A stretch of DNA of 64,000 nt, taken from assembly GCA_040390125.1 (NCBI GenBank), contig JAZJYZ010000001.1, positions 570,396 to 634,395 on the forward strand, in the 5' to 3' direction. The DNA is from Patescibacteria group bacterium. GTDB taxonomy: Bacteria > Patescibacteriota > Minisyncoccia > Phycocordibacterales > Phycocordibacteraceae. The position numbers and the translations under genes were made by a program. Position 1 is the stretch's first letter. The number at the start of each line of letters is the position of its first letter. Of the stretch, positions 263-44,383 are shown piece by piece. The notes beneath the pieces are model-generated. The model saw only the letters and a program-made list of their open reading frames with translations, was not told the DNA's origin and did no database searches.

Positions 263-345
263 AAGCTTCCAGGTTTCAGCTTTCAGCTTTCAGCTTTGGA
301 TTCAGAAAAAGCTGGCACCTGGAACCTGACAGCTGAAAGCTCTGT
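263..345. repeat. Heptamer-tiled imperfect palindrome: (AGCTTTC/AGGTTTC)n - loop - (AAGCTGG/CAGCTGA)n
   Basis: Left arm AGCTTCC AGGTTTC AGCTTTC AGCTTTC AGCTTTG, right arm AAGCTGG CACCTGG AACCTGA CAGCTGA AAGCTCT. It lies between rplU and the glmS 3' end. A separate perfect 12-bp hairpin (GTCGAATAGACG...CGTCTATTCGAC) at 344-375 overlaps the glmS stop. Confidence 0.5.
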
Positions 346-364
346 CGAATAGACGGCTTTGCGT

Positions 365-2185
365 CTATTCGACGGTTACTGACTTCGCAAGGTTGCGAGG
401 ACGGTCAACATTAAGTCCTTTGTCTGATGCAAAGTGATAGGCGAAGAGCTGGAGTGCAATGATAGAAAACACCACCGAGAGCTCTTCTGATGCTTTTGGA
501 ATGTAAATAACGTGGTCAGAAACCTCTCTTATTTTTTCATCACCCTCGGTTGCAATCGCAATCACCGGGCCTTTACGGGTGCGTATTTCTATCATATTGG
601 AAACAGTTTTTTCGTATACAGAATCTTGAGGAACAACGGCGACCGTTGGAAAGTTCTCATCTATCATCGCAAGGGGCCCGTGCTTCATCTCTCCTGCTCC
701 ATATCCTTCAGCGTGTACGTATGAAATTTCTTTAAGTTTCAGCGCACCCTCGAGTGCCGCTGGGTAGCTAAATCTACGCCCAATAAAAAGAAAATCCCGT
801 GAGTCTTTATATACGTCCGCAATTTTGTGTATCTCTTCGGACTGCTCTAATACCTTCTTTGCGAGATCTGGCAGGCTTCTGAGCGACTCTGCGAGCGCCA
901 TACCATCTTCCTTCGAGAGCGAACGAGTACGACCAAGGAAAAGTGCTACGAGCGAAAGAATAACTACTTGCGAAACAAGTGCTTTAGTGGAAGCAACTCC
1001 AATTTCAGGTCCTGCATGGTTATACACTCCGGCATCTGTTTCCCGGGCAATGGTGGAGCCTACGGTATTCACGATACCCAAAGTCAGAGCACCATGTCGT
1101 TTTGCTTCACGAATTGCCTCAAGTGTGTCGAGAGTTTCGCCAGACTGGGAGATTGCCAAGACGGCGGTGTTTGGCCTGATCACGGGCTTTCGATAGCGAA
1201 ATTCAGAAGCAAGCTCTACTTCAACAGGAACACCGGCAAGCGCCTCAATTAAATACTCACCAATGAGCCCTGCGTAGTAGGCGGTTCCACAGCCAACAAT
1301 AATAAGTCTGTCTATGTTTTGAAGTTCTTTTTCTACCGATTCAAGACCGCCAAGCTTTGCCTTACCCTCTTCAACGATGAGTCTGCCTCGAAGAGCATTT
1401 TCAATCACTTCAGGCGACTCCATCATCTCTTTCAACATAAAATGCGGGTAGCCTCCTCGTGAAGCCTCGCCCACATCCCACGTTATGGTTTCGGACGGGC
1501 GATCTACCTCACTTTCTGAAAGCGTTCGTACACGGTGCGTTGTGGGTGTGATAATCGCAACATCCCCATCGGAAAGGAACACCATTTTTTTTGTATGCTT
1601 CAAAATTGGAGTTGCATCAGAGGCAATAAAATTCTCTCCGTCCCCTAAGCCCACTACCACCGGGGAGCCCATGCGTGCAGTGATGATGGTGTCGGGCTCT
1701 TTTGCATACGAAATAAGAAGCCCATAGGTACCTCGAAGCTTCTTCAGAGTATCAATAACGGCATCTTCAAAATTGAGATTGTTTCCAAGTGCTCCTTCAA
1801 TAAGGTGTGCAATAACCTCGGTGTCCGTTTCTGATTTAAACGTATGACCTCCTGCCACAAGCTCTTCTTTAAGCTCACGAAAGTTCTCGATGATTCCGTT
1901 ATGGATTACAAACACGTCTCCGTCACAATCACCGTGCGGGTGTGCATTGATTTCATTCGGAGCTCCATGCGTTGCCCAGCGTAAGTGTGCTATTCCAGAA
2001 GTTGCCGAGTACTCTCCTTTCATTTTCTTAGTGAGTTCGGCAACAGCCCCTGGAGTTTTCACCACATCAAAGCCAGGCATGTATACACCCGCAGAGTCGT
2101 ACCCACGATACTCAAGCATTGAAAGACCCTCGAGAAGTATCGGGGATGCTTTTTTAGAGCCGGTATAGGCAAAGATTCCGCACAT
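365..2185 (-). CDS. glmS: Glutamine--fructose-6-phosphate aminotransferase (isomerizing)
   Basis: 606 aa with N-terminal MCGIFAY (Ntn amidotransferase Cys2) and two SIS domains; full-length GlmS architecture. Confidence 0.95.
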   Translation of the reverse strand: MCGIFAYTGSKKASPILLEGLSMLEYRGYDSAGVYMPGFDVVKTPGAVAELTKKMKGEYSATSGIAHLRWATHGAPNEINAHPHGDCDGDVFVIHNGIIENFRELKEELVAGGHTFKSETDTEVIAHLIEGALGNNLNFEDAVIDTLKKLRGTYGLLISYAKEPDTIITARMGSPVVVGLGDGENFIASDATPILKHTKKMVFLSDGDVAIITPTTHRVRTLSESEVDRPSETITWDVGEASRGGYPHFMLKEMMESPEVIENALRGRLIVEEGKAKLGGLESVEKELQNIDRLIIVGCGTAYYAGLIGEYLIEALAGVPVEVELASEFRYRKPVIRPNTAVLAISQSGETLDTLEAIREAKRHGALTLGIVNTVGSTIARETDAGVYNHAGPEIGVASTKALVSQVVILSLVALFLGRTRSLSKEDGMALAESLRSLPDLAKKVLEQSEEIHKIADVYKDSRDFLFIGRRFSYPAALEGALKLKEISYVHAEGYGAGEMKHGPLAMIDENFPTVAVVPQDSVYEKTVSNMIEIRTRKGPVIAIATEGDEKIREVSDHVIYIPKASEELSVVFSIIALQLFAYHFASDKGLNVDRPRNLAKSVTVE

Positions 2186-2230
2186 CTTAGATTTTGTTAG
2201 TGAACGTAGGTGAGCTTAAAAAATCTTAGA

Positions 2231-2285
2231 CCCTGTTAAAGCTGTGCTTCGCAGAGAGCTGTCTTACAGCGGATTTAACAGGGTG
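2231..2285. repeat. ORF-less inverted-repeat mini-element related to the GIY-YIG element ends
   Basis: CCCTGTTAAA (2231-2240) and TTTAACAGGG (2274-2283) form a perfect 10-bp inverted repeat around a 33-nt insert with two small hairpins. The ends match those flanking the GIY-YIG gene at 46359/46652. Confidence 0.45.
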
Positions 2286-2336
2286 ATACTACAATACTAC
2301 CTGAAAGAGGCGGGTTTGGTAACGAGTTTAGGACAA

Positions 2337-3389
2337 TTAATCCTCTTCCCGAGATGGGGCATCAATAACAGGCATGGCAATACCTGGAGCATCGCCCGTA
2401 ATACGCATCACATCCTTATCTATCTTCTTAAACTCCTTACCTGAATTGTTGAAATGATTGACCACCGTGCCGAGCGCATTTCCAAGCTTCGCATGATATT
2501 CCTCAAAGGTTTTGAGGTGTTTACCTAATTCCCCTACTCTCTGCACAATATCTTTTGCCTGTTCTTCAATTTGCATAGCACGAAGCCCCTGCAAAACCGT
2601 CTGCAAGTACGCAAGAAACGACGTTGGCGAGACAATGATGACTTTGTACCTCCCTGCCGCACGCTGAATAAGGTTCTCCGTGTCCTCAGTTACCGCACCA
2701 ATTTTATTAATAAGCAAATCATAATAAATAGCTTCGTGAGGAATAAACATAAACGCAAAATCCATAGTCCCTTCATTAGGGCGAATATATTTTGCTGTTT
2801 CTTGAATACGAAGCTTCAAATCATTTACAAATAGTTTTTCTAATCGTAACTTCTCCGATGGATCAGTAGCTTCGGTGAGACGGTTATAGTTTTCAAGTGA
2901 AAACTTTGAATCAATAGGAATAACTTTATCTTTTACAAACACGGCTGCATCTACAATTTCACCGTTACCGAAAGCATACTGCATTTGATACTGCCCTGGC
3001 GGAAGAACATTCTTCAGTAATGTTTCCAAGTAGTACTCGCCCAAAATACCTCTCTGTTTGGGATTCTTAAGAATGTCTTGCAGATTTTGAAGCTGGTCTG
3101 CAAACGAAACAACTTGCCTGTTAGTTTCATCAAGCTTCGTGAGGCGTTCCGTCACATCACGAATAATGCGGTTCGCCTCTGTTGCCTGATTCTGGGTCGA
3201 CTGCATCAAGTTTTGTGAGGTTTTATCAAGTCTGGCATCAAGTGTTCTGGAAAGTTCCGCAATCCGCTCGTTTATGAGCGAAACCCCCTCCCCTTGCCCA
3301 GTATCCTTTTTTCGAGAAAAGAAAAACACCAAAGCTCCTGCGTTGAGAAGCAAAAGAGCTATCACAAGAACAATAAGAAGTACCTCCAT
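2337..3389 (-). CDS. rmuC: DNA recombination protein RmuC family
   Basis: 350 aa with an N-terminal TM helix, a long coiled coil and a C-terminal RmuC nuclease-like domain. Confidence 0.75.
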   Translation of the reverse strand: MEVLLIVLVIALLLLNAGALVFFFSRKKDTGQGEGVSLINERIAELSRTLDARLDKTSQNLMQSTQNQATEANRIIRDVTERLTKLDETNRQVVSFADQLQNLQDILKNPKQRGILGEYYLETLLKNVLPPGQYQMQYAFGNGEIVDAAVFVKDKVIPIDSKFSLENYNRLTEATDPSEKLRLEKLFVNDLKLRIQETAKYIRPNEGTMDFAFMFIPHEAIYYDLLINKIGAVTEDTENLIQRAAGRYKVIIVSPTSFLAYLQTVLQGLRAMQIEEQAKDIVQRVGELGKHLKTFEEYHAKLGNALGTVVNHFNNSGKEFKKIDKDVMRITGDAPGIAMPVIDAPSREED

Positions 3390-13004: not shown

Positions 13005-15707
13005 TTAGTTTTCAGGATTAGGTGTTTCGTACAGCCCGTTCGCTGTGAGCACAGCTTTTAGCGTTTCCGGATCATCTTTTATCTCAAACCTCTGTTTGAG
13101 ACGTTCGTGATTCATAACCTCATTCCCACCCCAGAATGCGGCTTTAGCGAGGAGCTCCTTACTTACTTTTGCTCTTTTGGTGATTACCACTAAATCCCCC
13201 AAAGGAATATAGATATTGAAATTACCTTTGTCGTCCCACACAAACCAGTCTCTTGAATTCAAAACATCTTCATAAGAACGCCAGCCCTGTTGCAATGGAA
13301 AATTCTTCCAAAGTACCTCTAATGCCCTCGGGTGTCTTTCCAGTGTACGTGTTGCGGAGTTTCGCATTTGTTTAATACCTAACCGATCATCTTTTTTACC
13401 CGACCATGTCTGATATAAAACAAAGAACGGATGATCTTCTTTTGAGAAGATATCTTGTTTGCCATCAAAATACCTTTCTTTTACCTCACCAAAGACGTGT
13501 TTGATCGAACTTTTTATTTCTTCCTCGTATCCTTTACTTCTCAAGGTTTGCAAGGCGAAAGAAAGGCGTGCATGAACGCTACCAGAGCCCCTAGTGTTAT
13601 TCCCGAAAGAGTTGAGAATAGTAAGCTTCACGTAACTTTGAACATCTTTACTGTAAAATATCTCTTTCAAAAGATCCCAAACTTCTTTCAATTCTTCTGA
13701 CGGCTCTACAATTTGTGGCTCCTGCTCAATAATTGCTAGAGCAAGAAAGATAGCTCTGTAAATCGCATCCTGGTAAACAGAATCCCATTCAGTGTTTTTT
13801 TCTATTGAAAAAGCTTGATCCTTCTTTGTGGACTTGTGAATCAGTCGCCTAATAACTTCCCGAAGAGTCTCTAAAAGCTTTTCCTTGTTGTTAACTTGGC
13901 TTTGAGAAAGGAATCTTGCATACAAAGCCAATTCATCGCCCGGAAGAGCCTTTATAACAGAAGCCCCTTTTGAAATATGCTGATCGTAGATTTCGCGACT
14001 GATCCGATACGTACTCTTATTTTGAGGGGACTCCTTAGTAAAAGTGAGCCACTCTAGCATTTTTTCCGGATCAGAGGTTGAACGAGAATCCCAATACTTC
14101 TGTCTGCCTATGTCAGTCATTTCTGGTGAAGACGGAAATTCTATCCATCTATGAGCCACTAGAGTCAAGAGATCGCCTATATGTTTCTGTTTTTCTGCCG
14201 GTACATCAATACCCATTTCATGCTTTATCCAGCGAAAAATATCACTGATTTTTTCTTCCTGTAGATTTTTTCTATAAAAATACGATCGCATCCCTCCATT
14301 GTTGACGTACTCAGAATACGGACGTACATGTTCAATGGTTTTTCTTATAAAATCAATAAGATACGGAAATCGTATTTTGATGTACTCCAAAACAATTAAG
14401 TCAGCCAATCTAATTGGTAAGCCTAATTTTTTGTCTTCTGAAGAAAACATGGACAGGAAGAATCTAACCGAATTCATCGTTCTTACGAAAGCACGTGGAG
14501 TTTCATCTATAAACACACTAAGTGCAAACTGAAGGGCTGTTTTATCGTCTTCTTGAAAACTTCCATGCGGGAATGAGGAGATACCATATATCTCATGTGA
14601 CCCTACTTTCTTAATCTCTCTCTCCATCAGGCCTTGAGAATCAGTCATCTGATCAAACAAAGTTTTAATGAAAATCTGCTTTTGAAAGGTTGACGGGGTC
14701 GGAATAAAAATCTGAGTTCCTATACTCTTTGGATCATCAAATACAAATTTCCCGACTAGCGCCCCTTTTTCAGATACATTATTGGTTATCACGTCCTGTA
14801 AATCTCGTGGTGAGATGCAGAGAAGAAATACGATTTGTACTGGCAAACCGCCTCTGCCTTCATATTTGAAACGTTCAATAATTTCTATGACGCGATAGAT
14901 TTCCTCCAAATGAGCTCTCTCAAGCTCATCAACAACCACAATGAATTGTCTTTCAGAAAAAAGAGGGATGTTGCCGAAAAATTTTCCAACTCTCCGAGAA
15001 CAGAGTTGCGGATTATTTACCGGGTCCAAGTATTTGTCCCAGACCTTTGCTTTTGTGGGGAATAGTCCGATCCCGTTCAAAGTCAGAAAACGGATAAGTT
15101 CGGCGAATAAACCGTTCTTTGATTCTCTCAAAATAGCTTCCATGACAGGAAGTTGATCTGTCCAACCCAACCTGAAAGGATAGTTTTTTCCTATGGCTTC
15201 AAACCATCGTTCTTGAAAGAGCTTCTCAAAATCTTTTGTTTCGTTCGTTTCTGTGAGAGAAATGTAGCTGTATAACAATGAATCTTTCTTCATCTGCTCA
15301 ACGATCATCCTAGTCAGAGAAGACTTGCCACTGCCCATCTCACCAAAAATACCAACAACACTTACGTAGTCTTCAAGTTCCTGAATGCTTTTTGCATAAT
15401 TCTTTGAAGGAACTTTGAAGTCTAATAAATCTCGTCCAAGTCCAACCGACCAAGGGGAAAACCTAAAACCTCTGTAGGATAAGTTTTTATTGAAAATAGA
15501 TAATCCTGCCAGTGCAACTCCGAGGATAAAAAAACCTAGCAAGGTGATTTCAACTTCTGCGGTTATCCATTTCCCAATATAATGAACTCCCCAGAAGGTA
15601 AAGGTTATAAAAGTAAGTATTATGAAAAGAAGCCATGTTATAGAAAGGAAACGGTATTGTCTCCAAACGTATTTCAGTAAATCCAGAAGTCTCTTCATTA
15701 ACTCCAT
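13005..15707 (-). CDS. Membrane-anchored KAP-family P-loop NTPase (PifA/Tmn-like), 900 aa
   Basis: Two N-terminal TM helices, then Walker A GIFGEMGSGKSSL (KAP-type GxWGxGKS variant), Walker B FIVVVDELERAH (KAP-type hhhhDDLDR variant) and a large alpha-helical C-terminal region. Local AT content looks higher than in neighbouring housekeeping genes. Confidence 0.65.
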   Translation of the reverse strand: MELMKRLLDLLKYVWRQYRFLSITWLLFIILTFITFTFWGVHYIGKWITAEVEITLLGFFILGVALAGLSIFNKNLSYRGFRFSPWSVGLGRDLLDFKVPSKNYAKSIQELEDYVSVVGIFGEMGSGKSSLTRMIVEQMKKDSLLYSYISLTETNETKDFEKLFQERWFEAIGKNYPFRLGWTDQLPVMEAILRESKNGLFAELIRFLTLNGIGLFPTKAKVWDKYLDPVNNPQLCSRRVGKFFGNIPLFSERQFIVVVDELERAHLEEIYRVIEIIERFKYEGRGGLPVQIVFLLCISPRDLQDVITNNVSEKGALVGKFVFDDPKSIGTQIFIPTPSTFQKQIFIKTLFDQMTDSQGLMEREIKKVGSHEIYGISSFPHGSFQEDDKTALQFALSVFIDETPRAFVRTMNSVRFFLSMFSSEDKKLGLPIRLADLIVLEYIKIRFPYLIDFIRKTIEHVRPYSEYVNNGGMRSYFYRKNLQEEKISDIFRWIKHEMGIDVPAEKQKHIGDLLTLVAHRWIEFPSSPEMTDIGRQKYWDSRSTSDPEKMLEWLTFTKESPQNKSTYRISREIYDQHISKGASVIKALPGDELALYARFLSQSQVNNKEKLLETLREVIRRLIHKSTKKDQAFSIEKNTEWDSVYQDAIYRAIFLALAIIEQEPQIVEPSEELKEVWDLLKEIFYSKDVQSYVKLTILNSFGNNTRGSGSVHARLSFALQTLRSKGYEEEIKSSIKHVFGEVKERYFDGKQDIFSKEDHPFFVLYQTWSGKKDDRLGIKQMRNSATRTLERHPRALEVLWKNFPLQQGWRSYEDVLNSRDWFVWDDKGNFNIYIPLGDLVVITKRAKVSKELLAKAAFWGGNEVMNHERLKQRFEIKDDPETLKAVLTANGLYETPNPEN

Positions 15708-15828
15708 ATTCTCATATTACTGCGCAATCTGCCTTCTTACCCAAATGAAGTACTCATAAAATGAAGAAACGGAGTAAATCACCTTTTCTTAAGCCTCACG
15801 GGGAAACCAATCATGGCTCTAGTAATAC

Positions 15829-16386
15829 CTATTTTAAATACTGAAACGGCACCAAATCTACTTTAGCAAATAAACGCTGTGAACTAGATTCTTTTATCAT
15901 ACCCATTGAAGGTGCACCCGCAAAACCTATGTACTCAACCTCCTTTTTCTTTCCATTTCTAACATATTTAATTGCTGGAATCAGGTCGGTATCCGAACTA
16001 ATTACAATAGCAACATCATATAAATTGTCGGCCGCTCCTATGACTAAATCAACAGCTAACTTAACATCAACTCCTTTCTCTCTTATCTTTCCACTGTCGT
16101 ACATAATCTTCCCTGATTTCACCTCGAAACCCGATGTTCGCAAGGCTTCCAGAAACATCTGTTGTTTCTTTACACGATTTTCACCTTCAGATGTATTGTC
16201 ATAATTTTTAACAATTCCAACATAGTATCTTTTAGATACTAAATCTCTTGCTCCAACAATATGTGAAATAAATGCCGAATGATCGAACTTCTTTCCAAGT
16301 TCTGGGAGTCCGAAGGCTTTCAATCTATTGTAAGTATTACTACCATCAATATAAACAGCGACTCTCTGTTTTTTATTGAATATCAT
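15829..16386 (-). CDS. NYN domain (LabA-like, PIN-fold) ribonuclease
   Basis: 185 aa with VAVYIDGSNTY (first acidic motif) and VISSDTDLIPAIKYVR (SxDxD motif), both NYN/DUF88 hallmarks. Confidence 0.8.
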   Translation of the reverse strand: MIFNKKQRVAVYIDGSNTYNRLKAFGLPELGKKFDHSAFISHIVGARDLVSKRYYVGIVKNYDNTSEGENRVKKQQMFLEALRTSGFEVKSGKIMYDSGKIREKGVDVKLAVDLVIGAADNLYDVAIVISSDTDLIPAIKYVRNGKKKEVEYIGFAGAPSMGMIKESSSQRLFAKVDLVPFQYLK

Positions 16387-17343: not shown

Positions 17344-17418
17344 TGGTGACCCCACGGGGAATCGAACCCCGATTCCATCCTTGAGAAGGATGTGTCCTAA
17401 CCGTTAGACGATAGGGCC
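17344..17418 (-). tRNA. tRNA-Glu (anticodon CUC), CCA encoded
   Basis: Folded by hand: acceptor GGCCCUA/UGGGGUC, D-stem GUCU/GGAC, anticodon stem CAUCC/GGAUG with loop UUCUCAA, T-arm CGGGG-UUCGAUU-CCCCG, discriminator A, CCA. A hairpin terminator follows at 17311-17340. Confidence 0.85.
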
Positions 17419-17611
17419 AGTTTAAATAGCTTACAGCTTTCAGGTGCCAGCTTTCAGCTTAAAATACAGCATCCAAGAGGTTTTCTCAATCCCCCACCCT
17501 CACCACTTCTTATTTTTCTATTCCAACTTGGTTATAGTATCAAGTTGGAAAGAAAAAGAAGTTAGTTTTTCTTATAATCCCTTCAGATCCGAGATGAAGA
17601 GAACTAGCTTC

Positions 17612-17962
17612 TCATTCCACAACTACAAGATGAGGTCTTTTGGGAGGTTTGGTCGGAGCGGGTTGAGATGCTTTTCTTGCTTCATCTGCTCTATCCTCTC
17701 TTCCCTCCTCTATCACACCTAACCTAGACATGACCTTTCCAATATGCTCAAACTCTTTTACAAGCGCCCCTCGCTTTCCCGATGTATTTGCACCCAAGGC
17801 TCGCTGAATCAAATTGGATAACCGTAGAGTATTCCTTGCGGATAGATGATCTGTGCGGTTGAGGATTATTTCGATATCAGCAAATGCCGCATCATTCAAC
17901 CACTCTACGAACTCTCTCGCTTCGCTTAATTTGTCCTCAAGTCTTTCTCTTTTTATTACCAT
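17612..17962 (-). CDS. Hypothetical protein flanked by heptamer-type inverted repeats
   Basis: The ORF opens at 18007, with a plausible start at MVIKRERLED. It has no clear domain and is bracketed by inverted heptamer arms at 17431-17460 and 18078-18112. Confidence 0.4.
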   Translation of the reverse strand: MVIKRERLEDKLSEAREFVEWLNDAAFADIEIILNRTDHLSARNTLRLSNLIQRALGANTSGKRGALVKEFEHIGKVMSRLGVIEEGREDRADEARKASQPAPTKPPKRPHLVVVE

Positions 17963-18116
17963 TTCTTTGATAAGTAGGATACCTACTATGTGTCCATAAT
18001 AAAACAAAAATATAAAATGTCAAAGAAATCTAACCTGGGGTATTACGCAAAGCAAATAACTTCTCCCTCCTCCCCAAAAGCTGGAAGCTGACAGCTGGAA
18101 CCTGAAAGCTTATCTT

Positions 18117-19463: not shown

Positions 19464-21203
19464 CTACTCGCCACTTGGGGTACGGTCCGGAGGAATTTCA
19501 TAATAGTTTATCAGAAAATGCACAGTATTCATGAACGGCTGAGTCCACGTCTCTGAGGCATACTGTGCTCCCTTAGGATACACCGCAAAAAAGAACACGA
19601 GAAACTTCGGTTCATACGCAGGAAAATAGCCAAAAAATGAATGGAGATACCTGTCCGTGTAATATCCACGAGCGTCGGGCCTAGCAATTTGTGCTGTTCC
19701 AGTTTTTGCAGCAATACTGTAGTCAGTCATTTTCGCCCTACCACCTTGGAGAGCATCATCCACAACAGTGACAAGCATTCGAGTAATGATTTCATCACTC
19801 TCTTTACTGATGGCCTGCACGGGCGGGCTCCATCCAAGTTTTTTATTTATGCCACCGCCATAGCGAAGCTCAACGCCCACATGTGGAGCCGGCACCACAC
19901 CACCGTTTGCCAACGTTGCGAGTGCTCGAGCCATCGCAACCGGAGTAATGGCAATTCCCTGCCCGAACGAAGCGGTAGCATACTCAACGGCACGAGGGCT
20001 TTCCAGGTTACTCACCAAGGGAGATGCTTCGTTCGGCAAATCAATACCTGTTTCACTGGCGATGCCAAACTTTTTTAAATACTCAGCAAATTTTGTTGTA
20101 CCCATTCTTTTGACGACGAAAGAAACGCCCGTATTGAGTGATTGATTCAATACTTCTTGCATAGGAACAACACCACGAGCTTTGTGGTCGTAGTTGTTGA
20201 TACGTGAACCATCAAGAATAAGAAATCCTTTGTCGTCATAGGTGGTGGTCGGGGTGACGGCACCAGAATCAATGCCTGCAGCCATAGTGATTGCTTTCAT
20301 TGTGGAGCCGAATTCATACACACGCTCTACAAGCGGGTTTGCGAATGCATTTGGGTCTGCGTTTTTGAAATCGTTCAAATCAAAACCCGGACGTGATGCC
20401 ATAGCTACAATGGAGCCGGTTTTGGGATCCATAATGATGGCGCCCACGGTATCGGAGTGCCAGGCTTCATCATATTTTTTGAGAACGTCTTCCAAAAATT
20501 GTTGCACGGACGGCTCGAGAGAGGTTACAAGATCAGCGCCAGGCTCCACAGTGTCGGGAGAAAATTTCGCACGAATGTTTGTAAAGAGATCCGCAAAGAA
20601 ATTCACATACAATCCGCCATCTGCACGTGAGAGTGCGCCATTGTAATAACGCTCTAACCCATACTGACCAGCAACACTTTTACCATCTGCACCAAAACCC
20701 AAAAATCCAATAGTTTGTGCCCCAAGAGTTTTTCCTGGATAGAAACGCCAATGCGATGCCAAAACCTGTACTCCTGGTATTTTTAACGCAGAAATAGCAT
20801 CTCCCGTTTCTGTAGACACCTGCTTTGCAATTTCTGCATAGACACTCTCTTTCTTCGAGGCTTTTTCAAGAAATATGGACTGATCAAGTTCAGGTAGGAA
20901 CTCTTTGAGGGTATTAAATGTGCCCCGGGCATCCGCAAGGCGGGACGGATTGAGAACAATTGTGTAGCCCGCAGCTATAGTAGCGGCGGAAAGAGGAGCG
21001 CCGTCCTTCGTGGTGAAGAGAATACTACCTCTATCTATTTGGTTGGTGCTTTGTTGTACGTATTGGCCCTCTGCTTTGAGGCGGTATTCCTTACCGTGCA
21101 CAACTTGTAGAAAGTATAATCGCACGAGCAATATAAGTGCGATAGCTATGAGGGAGAGCGCAATGAGACGTATGCGAAAAGCAAACTTTGACTTAGCGGT
21201 CAT
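19464..21203 (-). CDS. ftsI: Penicillin-binding protein (FtsI-type class B transpeptidase)
   Basis: 579 aa with an N-terminal TM helix and the SxxK (STMK), SxN (SLN) and KTGTA motifs, in dcw-cluster context. Confidence 0.88.
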   Translation of the reverse strand: MTAKSKFAFRIRLIALSLIAIALILLVRLYFLQVVHGKEYRLKAEGQYVQQSTNQIDRGSILFTTKDGAPLSAATIAAGYTIVLNPSRLADARGTFNTLKEFLPELDQSIFLEKASKKESVYAEIAKQVSTETGDAISALKIPGVQVLASHWRFYPGKTLGAQTIGFLGFGADGKSVAGQYGLERYYNGALSRADGGLYVNFFADLFTNIRAKFSPDTVEPGADLVTSLEPSVQQFLEDVLKKYDEAWHSDTVGAIIMDPKTGSIVAMASRPGFDLNDFKNADPNAFANPLVERVYEFGSTMKAITMAAGIDSGAVTPTTTYDDKGFLILDGSRINNYDHKARGVVPMQEVLNQSLNTGVSFVVKRMGTTKFAEYLKKFGIASETGIDLPNEASPLVSNLESPRAVEYATASFGQGIAITPVAMARALATLANGGVVPAPHVGVELRYGGGINKKLGWSPPVQAISKESDEIITRMLVTVVDDALQGGRAKMTDYSIAAKTGTAQIARPDARGYYTDRYLHSFFGYFPAYEPKFLVFFFAVYPKGAQYASETWTQPFMNTVHFLINYYEIPPDRTPSGE

Positions 21204-21233
21204 CTTTATATTCTAGCGTATGAAGCAACTATT

Positions 21234-21333
21234 AGCTGTCAGGTTTCAGCTTTTCAAACAGCTGTCAGGTTTCAGCTGTCAGCTTTCAGCTTTGAATGCA
21301 AAAGCTGGCACCTGGAAGCTGGAAGCTGGAAGC
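21234..21333. repeat. Heptamer-tiled palindromic intergenic element (8 left units, 5 right units)
   Basis: ...AGGTTTC AGCTTTTCAAAC AGCTGTC AGGTTTC AGCTGTC AGCTTTC AGCTTTG - aatgca - AAAGCTGG CACCTGG AAGCTGG AAGCTGG AAGCTC, between ftsL-like and ftsI. Confidence 0.5.
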
Positions 21334-21363
21334 TCTACTTTCTACCTTCTACCTTCTACCTTC
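21334..21363. repeat. Tandem heptamer microsatellite (CTACCTT x ~4)
   Basis: TTTCTACCTTCTACCTTCTACCTTCC, immediately at the 3' end of the ftsL-like ORF. Confidence 0.5.
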
Positions 21364-21736
21364 CATTATTGAACGAAACAACACTTGATTTACTAACGAA
21401 TGTTGGATTCTTTACCGCAACGTAGCCAAGCGAGCGGGCGTAGGGCTCCGTAAATGTTTGAGTCTTTGCTAAGTATGCGGTTTCAAGATTAGCCACTTCG
21501 GCTGAAGCACGTGAAGCACTACGAACAAGCTCACGGTGTGCTGCGACATGAACAACTGAGGAAAACAAGAAATACACGTACAGAATGGCAAGGAGCACAA
21601 ACCCTACTCCAACTAAAACAACCGCACGGCGTTCAAGTGGGTGTGCGTAGGCAAATATTCCTCCCTGATTTCGGCTTCCAAAAGGCAGAGATCCTTGGAT
21701 GTCTGGTATTTTTTTACTGTGTCGATTTTTATTCAT
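21356..21736 (-). CDS. FtsL-like cell division membrane protein
   Basis: The ORF opens at 21901 but overlaps rsmH. Taking the start at ATG 21736 (MNKNRH...) leaves an 8-nt overlap with the rsmH stop. It has a single TM helix plus a coiled coil, at the position of ftsL in the dcw cluster. Confidence 0.5.
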   Translation of the reverse strand: MNKNRHSKKIPDIQGSLPFGSRNQGGIFAYAHPLERRAVVLVGVGFVLLAILYVYFLFSSVVHVAAHRELVRSASRASAEVANLETAYLAKTQTFTEPYARSLGYVAVKNPTFVSKSSVVSFNNGR

Positions 21737-22688
21737 GGTTGTGTGTTTTATTTTTTTCAAAAATTCTGAGCTTGGCACTTCTGGCACGAGGATTTTTCTT
21801 TCGCTCGCCCTCGCTCGGTATAATGGGTTTTTTTGTAATACGTACTCCTTTGTCAGCATCCTCTGCTTCACGAAATGCCTGTTTAGTAATCCGATCTTCA
21901 AGGCTATGAAATGAGATGACTGCGAGTCTTCCGCCCGGTGCTAAGAGTGCTAGTGCCTCTTGGAGGGCTTCTCTGAGTGCACCGAGCTCATCATTCACAG
22001 CAATACGCAGTGCCTGGAACGTTCGTGTTGCAGGATGAATCTTTCCTCGTCTATAAAAACCAGGAACCGCTGAAGAAATAATGTCTGCGAGCTGTTTTGC
22101 TGTTTCTATTGTGTGTTTTTTACGTTCTTCAACAATCACCCGAGCAATGCGTCCTGAAAATTTCTCTTCTCCGTATTCTTTGATGATTCTTGCAATCTCT
22201 TCTTCATCCCAATCTTTAATAATGTCTTTTGCGGTATACAAATGATTATCGTCAGAGCCAAGTGTCATCAAAAGTGGTTCGTCGCTCTTAAATGAAAGTC
22301 CCCTGCCTCCTGCAAGTTGCTCTGAGTGCCAGCCTAAATCGAACACGATTCCTTCAGCACTCGTAATACCTGCGTCTTCTGCAAGAGTTTTAATATTGCG
22401 AAAGTTTCCCTGCACATAAATAATTTTTCCAAGGGCATCAGCCAAACGCTCTCTTGAGAGTTTTAGCGAATTTTCATCAACGTCCAAAACTAACAAAGTC
22501 CCCTTCTTCCCTACTATGTGTGAAATCTTTTCTGAGTGACCTCCTGTGCCTACCGTTGCATCAATCGCAGTTGCTCCAGCTTTCAATTCCAAACCATCAA
22601 CTGTTTCATCTAAAAGAACAGTGGAATGAGTACTGAGTTCAGAGTTTAGAGTTCCAAGTTCTGAGTTTTCTCTGAGTGTTTTTTTCAT
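21729..22688 (-). CDS. rsmH: 16S rRNA (cytosine1402-N4)-methyltransferase
   Basis: 319 aa with DATVGTGGHSE SAM-binding motif, adjacent to mraZ. Confidence 0.92.
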   Translation of the reverse strand: MKKTLRENSELGTLNSELSTHSTVLLDETVDGLELKAGATAIDATVGTGGHSEKISHIVGKKGTLLVLDVDENSLKLSRERLADALGKIIYVQGNFRNIKTLAEDAGITSAEGIVFDLGWHSEQLAGGRGLSFKSDEPLLMTLGSDDNHLYTAKDIIKDWDEEEIARIIKEYGEEKFSGRIARVIVEERKKHTIETAKQLADIISSAVPGFYRRGKIHPATRTFQALRIAVNDELGALREALQEALALLAPGGRLAVISFHSLEDRITKQAFREAEDADKGVRITKKPIIPSEGERKKNPRARSAKLRIFEKNKTHNHE

Positions 22689-22700
22689 ATTCCTTTTCTT

Positions 22701-22736
22701 AAAGCTGGAAGCCGAAAGCTGTAACCTGAAAGCTTT
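22701..22736. repeat. Single-arm heptamer element (AAGCTGG AAGCCGA AAGCTGT AACCTGA AAGCTTTT)
   Basis: Right-arm-type units only, between mraZ and rsmH. It could pair long-range with the surplus left-arm units at 21234-21290. Confidence 0.4.
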
Positions 22737-23197
22737 TATATGACACCTATTTCTCCAAGCTTCGCAGCCATCGCATCTCCTTGCGACTCAATCTGCTCTT
22801 TGTAAGATGCCCAGCGTTTCTTATCCCACACTTCAATGCGGTCATTCACACCTGCAAGTACGACATCCGTTTTGAGAGTCGCAAAATCTTTCAGATAGTC
22901 AGGAATGAGAATGCGTCCTGCGGAATCAACATCAGCCTCCACGGCACCTGCAAGCATGAAGCGATTAAATCCTCGTGTATCAGATGAACCTATAGAAAGT
23001 TGACTAAACTTCTCAGCAAGTTTTTTCCACGACGTTACTGAGAAAACAAAAAGACAATGGTCGAGACCTCGAGTAACGATAACTGTCTTGCCAAGTTCTT
23101 TACGAAAGCGAGCCGGAAGTGAAAGGCGTTTTTTTGGATCAAGCGTGTGTTGGTATTCGCCAATGAGCATGAAAATAAAGGGGATTTTGTGGCTCAA
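22736..23197 (-). CDS. mraZ: Transcriptional regulator MraZ
   Basis: 153 aa with FIGEYQHTLDPKKRLSLPARFR; duplicated MraZ fold, first gene of the dcw cluster. Confidence 0.9.
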   Translation of the reverse strand: MSHKIPFIFMLIGEYQHTLDPKKRLSLPARFRKELGKTVIVTRGLDHCLFVFSVTSWKKLAEKFSQLSIGSSDTRGFNRFMLAGAVEADVDSAGRILIPDYLKDFATLKTDVVLAGVNDRIEVWDKKRWASYKEQIESQGDAMAAKLGEIGVI

Positions 23198-23317
23198 AAC
23201 TTATATGCCACTTTGTCCCACTTACTTCCTATTATATGACACTGTGCCCCACTTTATGTTTACTTATCCCCACTTCGACTCCCAGGGGTCGCTCAGTGTA
23301 AACACTTGGAACAGCCA

Positions 23318-23346
23318 GGCGATGCCTCATCGGATCCGCAGGGATC
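23318..23346 (+). ncRNA. Two-hairpin structured motif, copy A (GGCGATGCCTCATCGGATCCGCAGGGATC)
   Basis: Hairpin 1 is CGATG-cct-CATCG and hairpin 2 GATCC-gca-GGATC. Two further copies at 35319-35347 and 53131-53159 show a compensatory stem change. Confidence 0.4.
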
Positions 23347-23524
23347 ATTTAGTGTTTAGTGGCTAACGTTTAGGGAATACCCTAATCAAATTCGGAGGGA
23401 ACATTTAGAGAAAAACAAACTCTGAAAAACCCTAAGGTTTCGCCTTAAGGTGTTTAATGCTAGGGTTTAGGCGACACTTCTGATGCTTCATCCCCTGTCG
23501 AGGGTTTTTAGTGAGAAACACATT

Positions 23525-26855: not shown

Positions 26856-26934
26856 AGCTTTCAGCTTCCAGCTGTCAGCTGCCAGCTTTTATGAAATTAA
26901 AGCTGAAAGCTATAACCTGACAGCTGACAGCTCA
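26856..26934. repeat. Heptamer-tiled palindromic intergenic element
   Basis: AGCTTTC AGCTTCC AGCTGTC AGCTGCC AGCTTTT - atgaaatta - AAGCTGA AAGCTAT AACCTGA CAGCTGA CAGCTCA, between the mrdA 3' end and the greA start. Confidence 0.5.
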
Positions 26935-36670: not shown

Positions 36671-36678
36671 ATGAGTAG

Positions 36679-36750
36679 GTGTCAGGTTACAGGTTCTAGC
36701 TTTCAGCTTGTAATTCTAACCTAGAACCTAGCACCTAGCACCTAAAACCT
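36679..36750. repeat. Heptamer-tiled palindromic element (AGGTTMY / ACCTAGM variant)
   Basis: AGGTTAC AGGTTCT AGCTTTC AGCTTG - taattcta - ACCTAGA ACCTAGC ACCTAGC ACCTAAA ACCTC, between frr and rseP. Confidence 0.45.
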
Positions 36751-38488: not shown

Positions 38489-38518
38489 ACTACAAAGAGC
38501 TGTCAGCTTTCAGGTTCT

Positions 38519-38540
38519 GTGCTACACCCGGGTGTAGCAC
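38519..38540. repeat. Perfect 22-bp palindrome GTGCTACACCCGGGTGTAGCAC (copy 1), nested inside a heptamer element (arms 38498-38518 / 38569-38598)
   Basis: An identical 22-mer recurs at 42404-42425. Confidence 0.6.
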
Positions 38541-38767
38541 ATTTGGAGAAGTTTGCAGTTTGGTAACTAGAAGCTGAAAGCTGGCAGCTGAAAGCTTGAA
38601 TTCCTAGAGCTTGCCTAAAAACCCGCGGTACCCAAGCCGAAACCTTTCATTTTCGTCATGAGACATGAGTCGGAGCCCGCAATGTACGGAGAGTACATTG
38701 CGGGCGAGACGAAATGTCGAGTAGAAAATGAAAGATTTCTAGGCAGGGGGAGGTTTTTAGGCAAGCT

Positions 38768-39457
38768 CTATATACGGGTGCGAGGAAGAGTGACGGCGAG
38801 GTGCCCGAGAACGGCTTTCACTGACGAGCCTTGCTGGCGCATATATCCTTGTGCATCCAATAGGTCACGAAGTGCTTGCGGTGAAGCTCCTTTTGTATGC
38901 ACTTGTTCCAGTAGTTCTTTTACAAATGCCCTCACTGGCAAACGATCTTGGGTCTTTGTGATGTACCCAGTTATTTTCTCCACCATTTTTGAACGCTCTT
39001 CAAAAGTTGCGGAAAGAAACTCTCGTGCTTCTTTTTTTGCATCTTCGTCATCCGAAAGCATGTGTGCGTCAGAAACTGAAACGGCAACGGCCCTCGACTG
39101 AAGTGTTGGCAACGCATGCCCGAGTGCATCAACTGAAAAGAAGAAAATAGTATTGCCAGTCGCCTCTTCAACAACTTTGAGAAGTGCATTTTGAGCTTCG
39201 GTAGTGGCTCGACTAAAGGTGACCACTAAGTATTTCCAATCTTTAAGAGGTTTCAAAGAAGCGTAGGAAGAAATTTCACGTGCGTTATCAACGGAAAGCT
39301 CAGTGAAAGAAAGTACAAGGACGTCCACATTGCCTGCAGTCTTTACACCCCTTGTTTCAAGCATTGCTAAAACCTCAGATGCCCCTTTGCCAGAATTTCC
39401 TACAACAAGATACGCATGATGTAACTCCTTCGTGTGGGCAAGTTCAGAAACTTTCAT
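38768..39457 (-). CDS. holB: DNA polymerase III delta' subunit-like (short AAA+ clamp-loader subunit)
   Basis: 229 aa; HAYLVVGNSGKG degenerate P-loop, QNALLKVVEE and LPTLQSRA (SRC-like) motifs. Confidence 0.65.
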   Translation of the reverse strand: MKVSELAHTKELHHAYLVVGNSGKGASEVLAMLETRGVKTAGNVDVLVLSFTELSVDNAREISSYASLKPLKDWKYLVVTFSRATTEAQNALLKVVEEATGNTIFFFSVDALGHALPTLQSRAVAVSVSDAHMLSDDEDAKKEAREFLSATFEERSKMVEKITGYITKTQDRLPVRAFVKELLEQVHTKGASPQALRDLLDAQGYMRQQGSSVKAVLGHLAVTLPRTRI

Positions 39458-40798: not shown

Positions 40799-40892
40799 GG
40801 CGAATAATTGTAGCAGATGGAGCTCCAAACCCGATTCTTGACAGTACCCTTTCAGTATTGTTAAGTATGAAGATTGAAATTAATTTTAAAGC

Positions 40893-41658: not shown

Positions 41659-41676
41659 AACTATGGGGTTATTTAA

Positions 41677-41868: not shown

Positions 41869-41875
41869 ATAATCT

Positions 41876-42322
41876 ATGTCCGAACGAGGAGAAACATTCT
41901 TTGGAGAAAGAGATCCACATCCTCGTGAAGCTTCTGTTGAGCGCCAACTAGAAATTCCAGCAAAAACCCTTCCTCGCATGAATGGTGAGCCTGCAGGTAC
42001 CCACGTGTCACGCCTTCCCCATCAAGAACCATCCGTTATCTTTGTTAGCTCTCGAACTAACGGAGAAACAGTCAAGGTTAAAAGAGGCCTTCTCAGTAGT
42101 GCTGGACACGGAGTACTTCGCCTTGTTGCGGCTCCTGTTGGGGCAGCACTGTTCGCAACTGGAATTCTCACAGAAGTGACCCTCGTTGCCGGACTTCGAC
42201 TTGTCGGAGGAGTCCTTACAACTCCGCAGGAAATTCTCGCTGCAACAGCGGCGACAGCGATAGTGGGAGGAATAGCACTGCTCGACTTTGCAACCGGAAG
42301 AAAGAAAAAATTCGTTTTTTAA
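41876..42322 (+). CDS. Hypothetical tail-anchored protein (paralog a)
   Basis: 148 aa; RLVAAPVGAALFATGIL aligns with RVLALPVGVASSAQGFL of ORF 42493. Both have a C-terminal TM helix plus a basic tail. Confidence 0.45.
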   Translation: MSERGETFFGERDPHPREASVERQLEIPAKTLPRMNGEPAGTHVSRLPHQEPSVIFVSSRTNGETVKVKRGLLSSAGHGVLRLVAAPVGAALFATGILTEVTLVAGLRLVGGVLTTPQEILAATAATAIVGGIALLDFATGRKKKFVF

Positions 42323-42403
42323 AGATAGCAGGCATCAATGACCGCCAACCCCAACACCCGCAAGGGTGTTTTTGATTTGATATATCAAACCACTCTCATT
42401 ATT

Positions 42404-42425
42404 GTGCTACACCCGGGTGTAGCAC
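42404..42425. repeat. Perfect 22-bp palindrome GTGCTACACCCGGGTGTAGCAC (copy 2)
   Basis: Identical to 38519-38540, between the two tail-anchored paralogs. Confidence 0.6.
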
Positions 42426-42492
42426 AATTTACTTTTCCCGTTATAGAAATTGACAAAAGAATCGTACGGAGTACAACATCAAAAGAAAGATT

Positions 42493-42966
42493 ATGAAAAT
42501 TGGACACCAAGAAGCAGCCTTGAGAGAAACCCTCCCCAAAATCCCATTCGAAAGAAAACGCCGACCGCCACCACTAGAAGGCTTGAGGGTAATTGCGACT
42601 CCTGAGTACGTCCCGAACTTTGTCCATACTGTCTTTCCCGCACCAACCGCAAAAGCTCGCTTCATAAGTAATACGTTCAACCCGAAGGAAACTATTCAAC
42701 CTAAGAAAAAGAACCCAGTGATGCGGGTGCTCGCTTTGCCTGTGGGAGTGGCAAGTAGTGCACAAGGTTTTCTGAACGTAGAATCCAGCATCATAGGCAC
42801 GTCAGCCGGCATATCTCTCGGTGCTGAGAGAGGTGAGATGGTAGATGCACTTTTTGGAATCGCATCTCAAAGCCACATCGTGCAAACACTTCTTATTTCA
42901 GGCATAGCTCTGTTGGGTTTGGGTGGGTATCTTGTACGATTCAGTTTAGGAAAGAGAAAACGATAG
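42493..42966 (+). CDS. Hypothetical tail-anchored protein (paralog b)
   Basis: 157 aa, paralogous to ORF 41876..42322. Confidence 0.45.
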   Translation: MKIGHQEAALRETLPKIPFERKRRPPPLEGLRVIATPEYVPNFVHTVFPAPTAKARFISNTFNPKETIQPKKKNPVMRVLALPVGVASSAQGFLNVESSIIGTSAGISLGAERGEMVDALFGIASQSHIVQTLLISGIALLGLGGYLVRFSLGKRKR

Positions 42967-43009
42967 GCGTTAAGGCTTTCCAAAATCCAAAACAAATATC
43001 TTGGATTTT

Positions 43010-44284
43010 TTAATTTCTAGAAATTGAAAGCCCTACTGCCGCTAGTCTTTTTTCAATAGCCTCGTATCCCCTATCCATCAAGTGAGCGTTGCCCACGTGC
43101 GAGGTGCCGTCTGCAATAGCGGCGGCGAGAATGTACGCAAGACCAGCACGAATGTCAGGACCATCAATGTCACGTGCTTTGAGTAATGTTTTCCCTTTCA
43201 CGGTAGCTCGATGAGGATTTACTACGGCAATCTTTGCACCCATACTCACCAGCTCTGTTGTGTAGTTCAATCGTCCATTAAAAATAGTTTCAACTACCGT
43301 ACTCTCCCCCTCCGCTTGAGTGAGCGCCACCATCATGGGTGCTTGTGCGTCTGTGGGAAAACCAGGGTACTCATGCGTGCGTAACTTAATGGGGTTCAGA
43401 GTTTCAGGGGCAGAAACAGTTATTGAGTCTTTTTCAACACGCAAGGGAACACCCATCATGCGAAGCACCTCAAGAACTGCATCCAAATGTTCTGGAACAA
43501 TCCCCGTTACAGTAAGCCCATTTCCCGCAATGGCACCGAGAGCAAGAAATGTTGAGGCTTCAATACGGTCAGGGATGATGCGGAAAGCTGAAACAGGAGG
43601 AGTGAGAGTGGAAGGGTGAATGACGACTGTAGGAGTGCCGACGCCTTCAATCCTCGCTCCACAGGAAATCAAAAATTCAGCGAGTGCAACAATCTCTGGC
43701 TCCATTGCACAATTTTTCAACGTAACAGGAGCTTTTGCGAGAGTCGCCGCCATCATGAACGTTTCTGTTGCAGTTACTGAAACAATTCTGAAAAAGATTT
43801 CTCCCCCCGACAATCCACCAGGTGCGGAGAGAGTGTAAGAATCGGCAGTTTCAGAGTAGTTCGCACCCAGCTTTTGAAAACCTGAAATAAAAATATCAAT
43901 GGGTCTCTCGCCAATGACGTCTCCGCCAGGATGTGGAAATGTAACACTACCTAAACGTGCAAGAAGTGGCCCGATCAACACCACACTCGCACGCATTGAT
44001 TTTGCAAGTGTCTGGTCGAGAACACTTCCCGACAAACTTTTTGCGCTCACGGTAAGCTCGCTTCCCGTGTGAGTCACAAAGGCACCAAGCCCCTCTAAAA
44101 TTCGACTCATGGAAGTAACATCTGCGATGTTAGGTACATTAGTGAACTTCGACTCCCCTTCGATGAGAGCCGAAGCCGCCATTACCTTAAGTACGTTATT
44201 TTTTGCACCAAATACAGGAATTGAACCTTTAAGGCTCTTCTTCCCAGCCAGCCCTTCAATGGTAAATACGTTCTTCGAAGCCAT
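43010..44284 (-). CDS. murA: UDP-N-acetylglucosamine 1-carboxyvinyltransferase
   Basis: 424-aa EPSP-synthase-fold MurA with a typical N-terminus. Confidence 0.9.
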   Translation of the reverse strand: MASKNVFTIEGLAGKKSLKGSIPVFGAKNNVLKVMAASALIEGESKFTNVPNIADVTSMSRILEGLGAFVTHTGSELTVSAKSLSGSVLDQTLAKSMRASVVLIGPLLARLGSVTFPHPGGDVIGERPIDIFISGFQKLGANYSETADSYTLSAPGGLSGGEIFFRIVSVTATETFMMAATLAKAPVTLKNCAMEPEIVALAEFLISCGARIEGVGTPTVVIHPSTLTPPVSAFRIIPDRIEASTFLALGAIAGNGLTVTGIVPEHLDAVLEVLRMMGVPLRVEKDSITVSAPETLNPIKLRTHEYPGFPTDAQAPMMVALTQAEGESTVVETIFNGRLNYTTELVSMGAKIAVVNPHRATVKGKTLLKARDIDGPDIRAGLAYILAAAIADGTSHVGNAHLMDRGYEAIEKRLAAVGLSISRN

Positions 44285-44311
44285 TGAAGCCTATTGTACA
44301 CGAAGCGAGCT

Positions 44312-44383
44312 AGAAGGTTCTAGAGTTTAGATGCTAGCTTTTCCTACCAAAAGCTGGAAGCTGACAGCTGAAACCTGTAAGCT
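44312..44383. repeat. Heptamer-tiled palindromic element in the murA/priA divergent region
   Basis: ...TAGAGTTTAG ATGCTAGC TTTTCC - taccaa - AAGCTGG AAGCTGA CAGCTGA AACCTGT AAGCT. Confidence 0.45.

Follow-up and report, generated by a model that had tools for sequence, protein, structure and literature searches.

The stretch analysed here is a 64-kb piece of contig JAZJYZ010000001.1 (positions 570,396 to 634,395; hereafter the window) from the metagenome-assembled genome (MAG) of an ultra-small Patescibacteria/Parcubacteria bacterium of the Candidate Phyla Radiation (CPR). The question it raises is what is maintained at eight of its intergenic loci, between positions 264 and 44383, at which arrays of heptamers with an AG[C/G]T core form imperfect palindromes. 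A first-pass annotation had read them as a lineage-specific grammar of long stems and had proposed RNase III processing stalks or binding arrays as their function. CPR bacteria have tiny genomes with few recognisable regulators, and almost none of their non-coding elements have been studied experimentally. The window was analysed together with about 150 kb of DNA from relatives, and all loci were re-read, by which the coordinates first reported were found to be correct to within 1-4 nt. The loci form a family of intergenic elements restricted to one clade, and their building block is an array of five heptads (35 nt); the observation is real and statistically overwhelming, and the elements are a functional-looking non-coding family in a Parcubacterium.

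Both strands were scanned for AG[CG]T at a period of 7, and 23 runs of at least 3 units were obtained against 0.05 expected from first-order Markov shuffles, so that the proposed enrichment of the heptamer tiling over shuffled sequence holds within the 64 kb. Period-7 runs of [CT]AG with at least 4 units numbered 13 (0.04 expected). A looser scan for [CT]AG at 4 of 5 consecutive period-7 positions gave 18 runs (0.33 expected), recovered the same loci and nothing else, and detected zero arrays from 44.4 to 64 kb. Tandem Repeats Finder, which is independent of the motif scans, assigned a period of 7 to every locus, with degenerate units (70-95% matches). All of the AG[CG]T runs are confined to intergenic spacers, and the elements lie 0-23 nt past stop codons and 4-30 nt ahead of starts or promoters, and by a rough estimate from the gene map about one in seven spacers of the first 44 kb carries them, spacers of the dcw cluster included. 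The heptamers are contiguous, with no alternation of a constant repeat and unique spacers, and are thus not CRISPR, as the first-pass annotation had held. When the 64 kb was searched against Rfam 15 at gathering score, tRNA-Glu was the sole match, and the heptad elements matched no family.

The heptad consensus is AG-S-T-K-N-Y, in which the A, G, and T of positions 1, 2, and 4 never vary and position 3 is occupied by C or G. After overlapping opposite-strand reads caused by the self-complementary AGCT core were left out, 17 arm-level AG[CG]T runs remained, 11 of which have exactly five units and none of which is longer. Most loci have two such arms, and their arrangement is convergent throughout, with short centres of 4-10 nt in 5 of the 8. 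Each complete element consists of one type A arm (AGCTTTC AGSTNNC AGCTGTC AGSTKCC AGCTTTT, thus ending in KCC AGCTTTT) and one type B arm, which ends in AGCTTTC AGCTTTG.

Orthologous sites were compared in L012, L014 (same genome as L021), L019, and L020, whose coding DNA is 71-80% identical to the window. The array sample comprised the 8 loci of the window and about 20 arrays of relatives. At the third element (E3), between ftsI and an open reading frame (ORF) read as ftsL, the ftsI-proximal type-B arm (21260-21294, plus strand) is invariant at 31 of 34 columns (91%) in four genomes, in which third codon positions are invariant at 36% in ftsI, 43% in rsmH, and 69% in mraZ, and second codon positions of ftsI at 94%. 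The chance of such invariance at the third-position rate was roughly estimated by us from the binomial distribution as about 1e-8. At the fourth element (E4), a single type-A-like arm (22701-22734, minus strand) between the mraZ stop (22736) and the rsmH start (22688), 35 of 35 positions are identical in three genomes (window, L012, and L014), the corresponding third-position values being 40% (ftsI), 47% (rsmH), and 76% (mraZ). Retained arms are thus 91-100% invariant against 36-76% for third codon positions, which indicates purifying selection on the arrays, variable heptad positions included. The window interval 20569-23346 was also found 100% identical in a Logan contig (SRR26324623).

The partner arms were not conserved in this manner. 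The type-A arm of E3 (21300-21334, minus strand) has five units in the window, six in L012, three in L014, and five differing units in L019, and in L020 it is replaced by (TAGCGTT)n with an insertion of about 70 nt; no variation was seen among four genomes in the loop or in the innermost units of either arm. At the mrdA|greA site (E5; type-A arm, 26856-26890, plus strand; type-B arm, 26898-26932, minus strand), which lies between the mrdA stop (26951) and a promoter-like site of greA (26822-26795) and is inverted in orientation compared with the other elements, a full palindrome is present in the window, a single arm in L012, arrays of a different, CCAAG-type heptamer in L014 and L020, and nothing in L022. 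The retention of arm complementarity at orthologous loci, by which the first-pass annotation had proposed to judge the stems, was therefore lost at both ftsL|ftsI and mrdA|greA. From these comparisons, we infer that the constrained unit is the single array and not the stem.

Replacement of one heptamer family by another was seen at further sites. The array downstream of murF reads AGCTTTC AGGTTCC AGCTGTC AGCTTCC AGCTTTT|GGGGAG in the window, differs by one base in L019, and is AGCGTCT AGTGTCT AGCGTTT AGTGGTT AGGTTTT|GGGGAG in L020/L021, so that position, boundaries, and unit number were preserved through an orthologous replacement. In L020, the CAG-type arm between mraZ and rsmH is replaced by TAGGGGT TAGAGGG TAGCGTT TAGAGAA. 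In L012, the region upstream of mraZ carries a CAG-type five-heptad array, flanked by a U-tailed terminator on one side and the mraZ promoter on the other, and L014 and L020 have TAG-type five-heptad arrays there. In more distant Parcubacteria (FtsI 49-50% identical), single five-heptad arrays with other units were found at distances of 4-12 nt from start codons, one of them immediately ahead of a gene judged from its translation to be ATP synthase subunit c-like. No arrays were found in the compared regions of L022 (67% identical). What is constant across relatives is position, the 7-nt period, and about five units, and what varies is the unit sequence; turnover appears to proceed by heptamer slippage, with gain and loss of units, and by wholesale replacement with another heptamer family. 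The arrays at the same intergenic spots in Parcubacteria relatives bear out the lineage-specific heptamer grammar that had been suggested from the window. In the window itself, degenerate CTAAA/TTTAG-type units upstream of mraZ (about 23347-23375 and about 23440-23472) were seen to align with the TAG arrays of L014 and L020.

Species-representative genomes were scanned for the exact pattern, which yielded 18 hits in 16 MAGs, 3 of them Parcubacteria/Paceibacterota. These are L012, with an orthologous ftsL|ftsI element, and L014 and L019, with matching arrays at the same sites. The hit sites outside Parcubacteria that were inspected by eye (L002, L003, L006, and L016) proved to be short hairpins with about 2 units per arm, and the remaining nine loci outside Parcubacteria were surveyed by automated period-7 and YAG scans only. 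No match to the array pattern was found in viral contigs.

The folding of the elements was evaluated in the same material. Predicted hairpins are bulged, with an apical stem of 7-9 bp, a symmetric internal loop, and then helices of 4-5 bp in series; folding energies lie between -18 and -49 kcal/mol, z-scores are about -2 to -5.6 except on one strand of the eighth element (E8, 44302-44389), which gives +0.2, and dinucleotide shuffles of the AGCT-rich element sequences fold well too. Complementarity of arms within a locus averaged 24.8/35, compared with 26.3 ± 3.7 between arms of different loci, and at the variable positions only it was 10.0/20 within and 11.4/20 between loci. In a covariation alignment of seven elements with a full 35-pair stem, 79.6% of cells were paired against 80.1 ± 1.4% with partners shuffled (339 of 500 shuffles reaching at least the observed value), and the covariation score was 0.125 against 0.117 in shuffles. 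The pairs are contributed entirely by the invariant AG.T/A.CT columns, and in most heptads about two positions stay unpaired. The long stems proposed by the first-pass annotation as the selected feature are therefore not supported, since orthologues do not keep complementarity and the paralogous arms do not covary. Hairpin potential would follow from two inverted arrays of the same grammar lying next to each other, and the palindromic appearance is probably incidental, brought about by two arrays that face each other. G-U wobble was also considered as a sign of a transcribed stem and was rejected, as strand energies did not differ consistently relative to gene direction.

As a tentative explanation, which we hold at somewhat less than even confidence and which draws on analogy with known systems, each array would act as a docking platform, periodic in layout, on which a nucleic-acid-binding factor that reads the sequence would oligomerise, each 7-nt register taking one subunit and a whole array about five. 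The arrays lie past the end of a gene and ahead of the promoter or start codon that follows it. The 7-nt period, the invariant A, G, and T columns, and the sharp five-unit mode are as predicted by a periodic reader, and neither a plain stem nor plain slippage predicts the period-7 grammar or the five-unit mode. Of the two functions originally proposed, binding arrays remain a candidate, and the RNase III stalks, discussed below, are not supported. Such a factor could read either double-stranded DNA or the transcript. The position of the L012 array between a U-tailed terminator and the mraZ promoter makes a DNA-level role possible; the closeness of promoters and the palindromic AGCT core could be taken in the same direction, and reading of RNA is possible in view of arrays tight against stop and start codons, short centres, and the conserved E3 loop.

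The DNA precedent is the ribbon-helix-helix (RHH) protein omega/ParB of pSM19035, which binds contiguous 7-bp heptads in either orientation, at least 4 being needed, with one dimer per heptad (PMC9499535). The five contiguous heptads per arm found here agree with that minimum; the omega operators differ in being plasmid-borne and few, with 7-10 heptads of mixed orientation and no central gap, and their protein is known. The RNA precedent is HutP, which recognises the A and G within XAG motifs spaced at 7 nt (U498, U505, and U512) in two clusters flanking a stem and whose binding competes with hairpin formation, as is similar for TRAP (PMC2425495). Common to HutP/TRAP sites and the present arrays are NAG triplets at constant spacing (7 nt for HutP) with free spacers. 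HutP differs in that its 3 + 3 motifs all point the same way and belong to one leader RNA of a single operon; the second arm here is complementary to the first, and its NAG triplets are due solely to the self-complementary AGCT core.

Several results weigh against a docking platform. Neither an RHH or transposase domain nor a homologue of HutP or TRAP (no Pfam match) was found in the window ORFs scanned, which were not every ORF, and a single genome harbours at least two or three heptamer families side by side. Between the conserved ftsI-proximal arm and the -10-like box, the spacing varies (about 10, 17, and 43 nt), which speaks against a fixed operator geometry. The invariant E3 loop and inner units, the short centres, and the constant convergence are fitted more naturally by a hairpin, conservation reaches variable heptad positions that an AG.T-only reader would not need, and the sample (8 loci and about 20 arrays of relatives) is small. 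Supply of Shine-Dalgarno or -35 sequences by the arrays was considered separately and rejected, the spacing to the ATG or to the -10-like box being inconsistent.

The alternative that survives best, which we nevertheless consider unlikely, is an RNA hairpin of the REP/BIME kind at the 3' end of the upstream message, serving as an exonuclease barrier, an attenuator, or a device for stop-start translational coupling. All complete elements can fold, with the z-scores given above, the apical stem with its symmetric internal loop recurs over short centres, the distances to stops, starts, and promoters are suitable, and four genomes show no change in the E3 loop and inner units. Arms without covariation, orthologues that lose or replace one arm and keep the other, and the existence of conserved single arms all argue against it; it also leaves the 7-nt periodicity and the five-unit length unexplained, shows no consistent strand folding advantage relative to the direction of transcription, and is proposed for an organism that has ordinary U-tailed terminators. 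REP, BIME, and REPIN sequences of Enterobacteria and Pseudomonas are likewise interspersed intergenic or in-operon imperfect palindromes of about 35-80 nt that persist at orthologous sites, and REP/BIME occur singly or as inverted pairs of two subtypes (Y and Z there, A and B here). However, each REP (20-40 nt) is itself palindromic with a GTAG head, whereas the arms here are heptad-tiled and only AGCT is self-complementary, and no RAYT was seen in the window ORFs scanned and no compensatory arm evolution was detected. REP/BIME are the best functional analogue, with membership failing on self-palindromic units and compensatory arm evolution.

Canonical terminators with a GC stem and a T-tail were found elsewhere in the window (17330-17314, 23546-23534, 25951-25910, and others) by a terminator scan that detected no GC-rich stem with a U-tract at any heptad element. 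Since the organism has such ordinary terminators, the heptad elements are not its standard ones, and the earlier statement that they are not classical intrinsic terminators was upheld.

Two long-range pairings had been suggested as well, and neither was supported. The arms of the second element (E2), at 17428-17462 (type B, plus strand; between a conserved promoter-like block of tRNA-Glu and tRNA-Glu itself, 17344-17418, minus strand) and 18076-18110 (type A, minus strand; 6 nt past the murF-like stop at 18117), had been taken for a stem bracketing ORF 17612-18007, which encodes 116 aa from the ATG at 17962 to the stop at 17612. The inter-arm sequence (17463-18075, minus strand) consists of the promoter-like TTGAGA-17-TATTTT block, which lies directly upstream of tRNA-Glu between the E2 arm positions in all relatives, and of an inserted cassette with a promoter-like TTGACA-16-TATTAT (18023-17996), the 116-aa orphan ORF, and a downstream hairpin. 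The cassette is missing in L019, L020, and L021, and in L019 the centre between the arms is just 46 nt and has no ORF. Because a conserved tRNA promoter block and an inserted cassette private to this genome part the two arms, E2 is not a long-range stem enclosing a gene. The orphan ORF had no Pfam or NCBIfam match, its sole database match being itself (hypothetical protein), and a role as a mobility or binding protein was rejected on the lack of a family match and its absence between the orthologous arms in L019/L020/L021. The second suggestion was that the single arm at 22701 pairs with surplus units at 21234-21254. These belong to a 26-nt partial duplication of the E3 type-B arm (21234-21259, plus strand; AGCTGTC AGGTTTC AGCTTTT CAAAC) that is private to this genome and absent from relatives, and the 22701 arm is single in every relative.

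An origin as a selfish non-autonomous mobile element of the REPIN/MITE kind was considered next in order of plausibility and is judged doubtful. Here, the arms would be terminal inverted repeats of transposase-binding subrepeats, and the centre would be a cargo site, filled in E2 and in the seventh element (E7). Copies have position-specific A and B arm consensuses in common, which suggests a master element, and their arms are convergent in every case. The centres accept DNA (the 613-bp stretch of E2 including its gene cassette, and a 22-nt palindrome in E7), orthologous arms are either identical or wholly replaced, and the elements are absent from the more distant L022. On the other side, the flanks of six complete copies share no target-site duplication, no transposase or RAYT was found among the window ORFs scanned, and no copy was found in viral contigs. 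There is no clean presence or absence, the same sites being occupied although ftsI and rsmH third positions are invariant at only 36-43%, and purifying selection acts on the locus-specific arm sequences. In REPINs, the two arms are reported to evolve in a compensatory manner, and nothing of the kind was seen here.

RNase III stalks cutting polycistronic mRNAs into segments, the function first proposed, appear improbable. Several elements lie between co-directional genes. RNase III substrates have about 20 bp or more of near-continuous double-stranded RNA, and uninterrupted helices of about 16 bp are possible in E5 and E7 in shifted registers. In register, pairing is broken in every heptad, with about two unpaired positions each and mini-helices of 4-5 bp, and neither covariation between arms nor retention of complementarity in orthologues was found. 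One element stands in a divergent spacer and one arm downstream of a tRNA promoter. The premise is also weak, as Shine-Dalgarno motifs are almost lacking (4 of 46 genes) and 16 of 38 genes, with ftsI among them, have a -10-like TANNNT hexamer whose end lies 6-8 nt ahead of the ATG, over a background of about one gene or fewer at most other offsets and a secondary peak of 4 genes at 3 nt. Examples are TAGAAT-6-ATG (ftsI), TACAAT-7-ATG (frr and the aroA-like gene), and TATAAT-7-ATG (2337-3389). Many genes, with ftsI, frr, alr, and the aroA-like gene among them, thus probably have their own promoters and leaderless mRNAs, and leaderless transcription may be pervasive in the window; as many flanking genes would then have transcripts of their own, the premise of segmented polycistronic RNAs is weakened.

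Functionless heptanucleotide microsatellites of the LSSR/STRR type produced by replication slippage may be dismissed as very improbable: heptanucleotides are given as the most abundant class of long simple-sequence repeats in most genomes examined by Mrazek (2007, as cited in PMC4679880), E3 shows changes in unit number (3-6) and the 26-nt local duplication, and other heptamer families are nearby, but the arrays are degenerate and not perfect repeats, their length is sharply peaked at five units, and the purifying selection indicated by the 91-100% invariance of retained arms leaves neutral slippage strongly disfavoured for the conserved arms of E3 and E4.

To return to the five-heptad array as a docking platform, its nearest counterparts in the literature are the class 3 predicted global regulator binding sites of Geobacter metallireducens, which match in architecture and orientation and not in unit sequence. 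Eight opposite-strand pairs of these are recorded in a 4-Mb genome (Aklujkar et al. 2009, PMC2700814, Additional file 9), with five tandem MTYCTGA heptads per site, an overall length of about 83 bp (I302: 42 + 41), and one pair between proB and proA (PMC2700814). Five tandem degenerate heptads, opposite-strand pairing, an element length of about 75-100 bp, a 5' arm of CAGNNNN and a 3' arm of NNNNCTG, and an intergenic location that extends into an operon (proB|proA) are common to both. The unit is MTYCTGA there and [AC]A[GC]CTG[AG] here, with CTG(A/G) as the shared part, and Geobacter belongs to another phylum and has 8 pairs only in its 4-Mb genome. IHF/HU was put forward by the authors of that paper (PMC2700814), and no functional characterisation of the class 3 sites after 2009 was found in our literature search.

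The cyanobacterial STRR, the LSSRs of Mrazek (2007), and the TAACTGA repeats of Beggiatoaceae, Cyanobacteria, and Bacteroidetes (MacGregor 2015, PMC4679880) were also compared; a post-transcriptional reader (S1, Csp, or CsrA) was proposed for the TAACTGA repeats, and none was found (PMC4679880). TAACTGA, STRR, and LSSR repeats resemble the present arrays in having 7-nt units in intergenic DNA, arranged head-to-tail and longer than chance, and TAACTGA repeats often lie a few nucleotides upstream of start codons in Shine-Dalgarno-poor regions. They differ in being direct repeats of one exact heptamer, with one inverted case reported, whereas the units here are degenerate around an AG.T core, five in number, and mostly set in convergent pairs. 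The heptad-array class is therefore already known, and the paired AG.T five-heptad arrays are a variant of it; no account of such elements in CPR bacteria was found in the literature searched. Outside CPR, about 12 TAGTGGT/TAGTTGT units were seen to face their complements in a long palindrome of L009 (47-261), a Desulfobacterales MAG, and L005 and L011 also have heptamer arrays; heptamer-tiled inverted arrays are thus not confined to CPR.

A universal YAG core across phyla (CAG/TAG in Parcubacteria, CAG in Geobacter, TCAGTTA in Beggiatoa, and STRR), together with a connection to primase CTR sites or RelE codons, was considered and rejected as evidence, because by a rough estimate about 40% of random heptamers have YAG on one strand and because families without it exist (the CCAAG-type in L014/L020 and GGGACCG in Geobacter).

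In this window, the conservation of these 35-nt non-coding arrays is close to that of second codon positions, and their five-times-seven architecture is common to them and to the Geobacter elements recorded in 2009. A reader protein, should there be one, would be a candidate global regulator for an organism seemingly lacking Shine-Dalgarno-based initiation; if there is none, the arrays would be a clean case of conserved non-coding sequence with a misleading palindromic look. A much wider proposal is conceivable, although we regard it as unlikely in its entirety: the five-heptad module would be the binding unit of a putative oligomeric factor and would form a genome-wide regulatory or insulating layer between packed, Shine-Dalgarno-poor, and largely leaderless genes, the same kind of module, seen in the Geobacter class 3 sites, would have arisen or spread in unrelated phyla, and family replacement would reflect co-evolution with the specificity of the reader.

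The genes among which the elements lie are glmS, the dcw cluster (mraZ, rsmH, the ORF read as ftsL, ftsI, and a murF-like ligase), mrdA, greA, frr, an aroA-like gene, and tRNA-Glu on the minus strand, and alr on the plus strand. The first element (E1) has a type-B arm at 264-298 (plus strand; AGCTTCC AGGTTTC AGCTTTC AGCTTTC AGCTTTG) and a type-A arm at 307-341 (minus strand, on which it reads AGCTTTC AGCTGTC AGGTTCC AGGTGCC AGCTTTT), the latter 23 nt past the glmS stop (365). The sixth (E6) has a B-like arm at 36677-36711 (plus strand), an AGGT-rich variant which ends 6 nt from the start codon of a minus-strand gene at 36670, and a second arm at 36716-36750 (minus strand; AGGTTTT AGGTGCT AGGTGCT AGGTTCT AGGTTAG), which abuts the frr stop codon (36751). 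In E7, a 3-unit arm (38498-38518, plus strand) lies 9 nt past the alr stop (38488), and a 4-unit arm (38569-38596, minus strand), on which a DNA polymerase III delta-like gene (38768-39457) converges, follows after a centre of 50 nt. E8, in a divergent spacer, has a degenerate arm at 44308-44342 (plus strand; AGCTAGA AGGTTCT AGAGTTT AGATGCT AGCTTTT), 23 nt from the start of the aroA-like gene (44284), and a type-A arm at 44349-44383 (minus strand), which ends 6 nt ahead of the ATG at 44390.

The centre of E7 includes the perfect 22-nt palindrome GTGCTACACCCGGGTGTAGCAC (38519-38540), which is unrelated to the heptads; it occurs in two identical copies (0 expected), and the second (42404-42425) is in a terminator-like context. 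Adjoining E3 is a second heptamer family (21331-21363, minus strand; gene-sense (TAGAAGG)x3 TAGAAAG), which includes the stop codon of the ORF read as ftsL. At the 5' end of rsmH as annotated (22623-22667), a period-7 GAGTTCA-type array of about 5-6 units was seen within the first approximately 20 codons; the sequence is unrelated in relatives, four-way invariance falling to 0.15, and either an in-frame heptamer expansion or a true start farther downstream would account for it. Upstream of mraZ (23200-23290), GTGGGG/GTGGGA boxes about 20-25 nt apart stand beside the -10-like box CATATAAT; they resemble MraZ operator repeats and are kept in L012 (5030-5110) and L020.

At 13005-16386, a 900-aa KAP-family P-loop NTPase adjoins an NYN-domain (RNase-like) protein, and this region, whose flanks but not interior are matched by L021, may be a defence or accessory island. 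A link of the AGCT core to restriction-modification was rejected, as AGCT is not avoided outside the arrays (observed/expected, 0.94). CGCG is strongly rare in the window (16 observed against 115 expected; ratio, 0.14), and GGCC (0.50), GATC (0.58), and GCGC (0.60) are also low, possibly through restriction-modification pressure.

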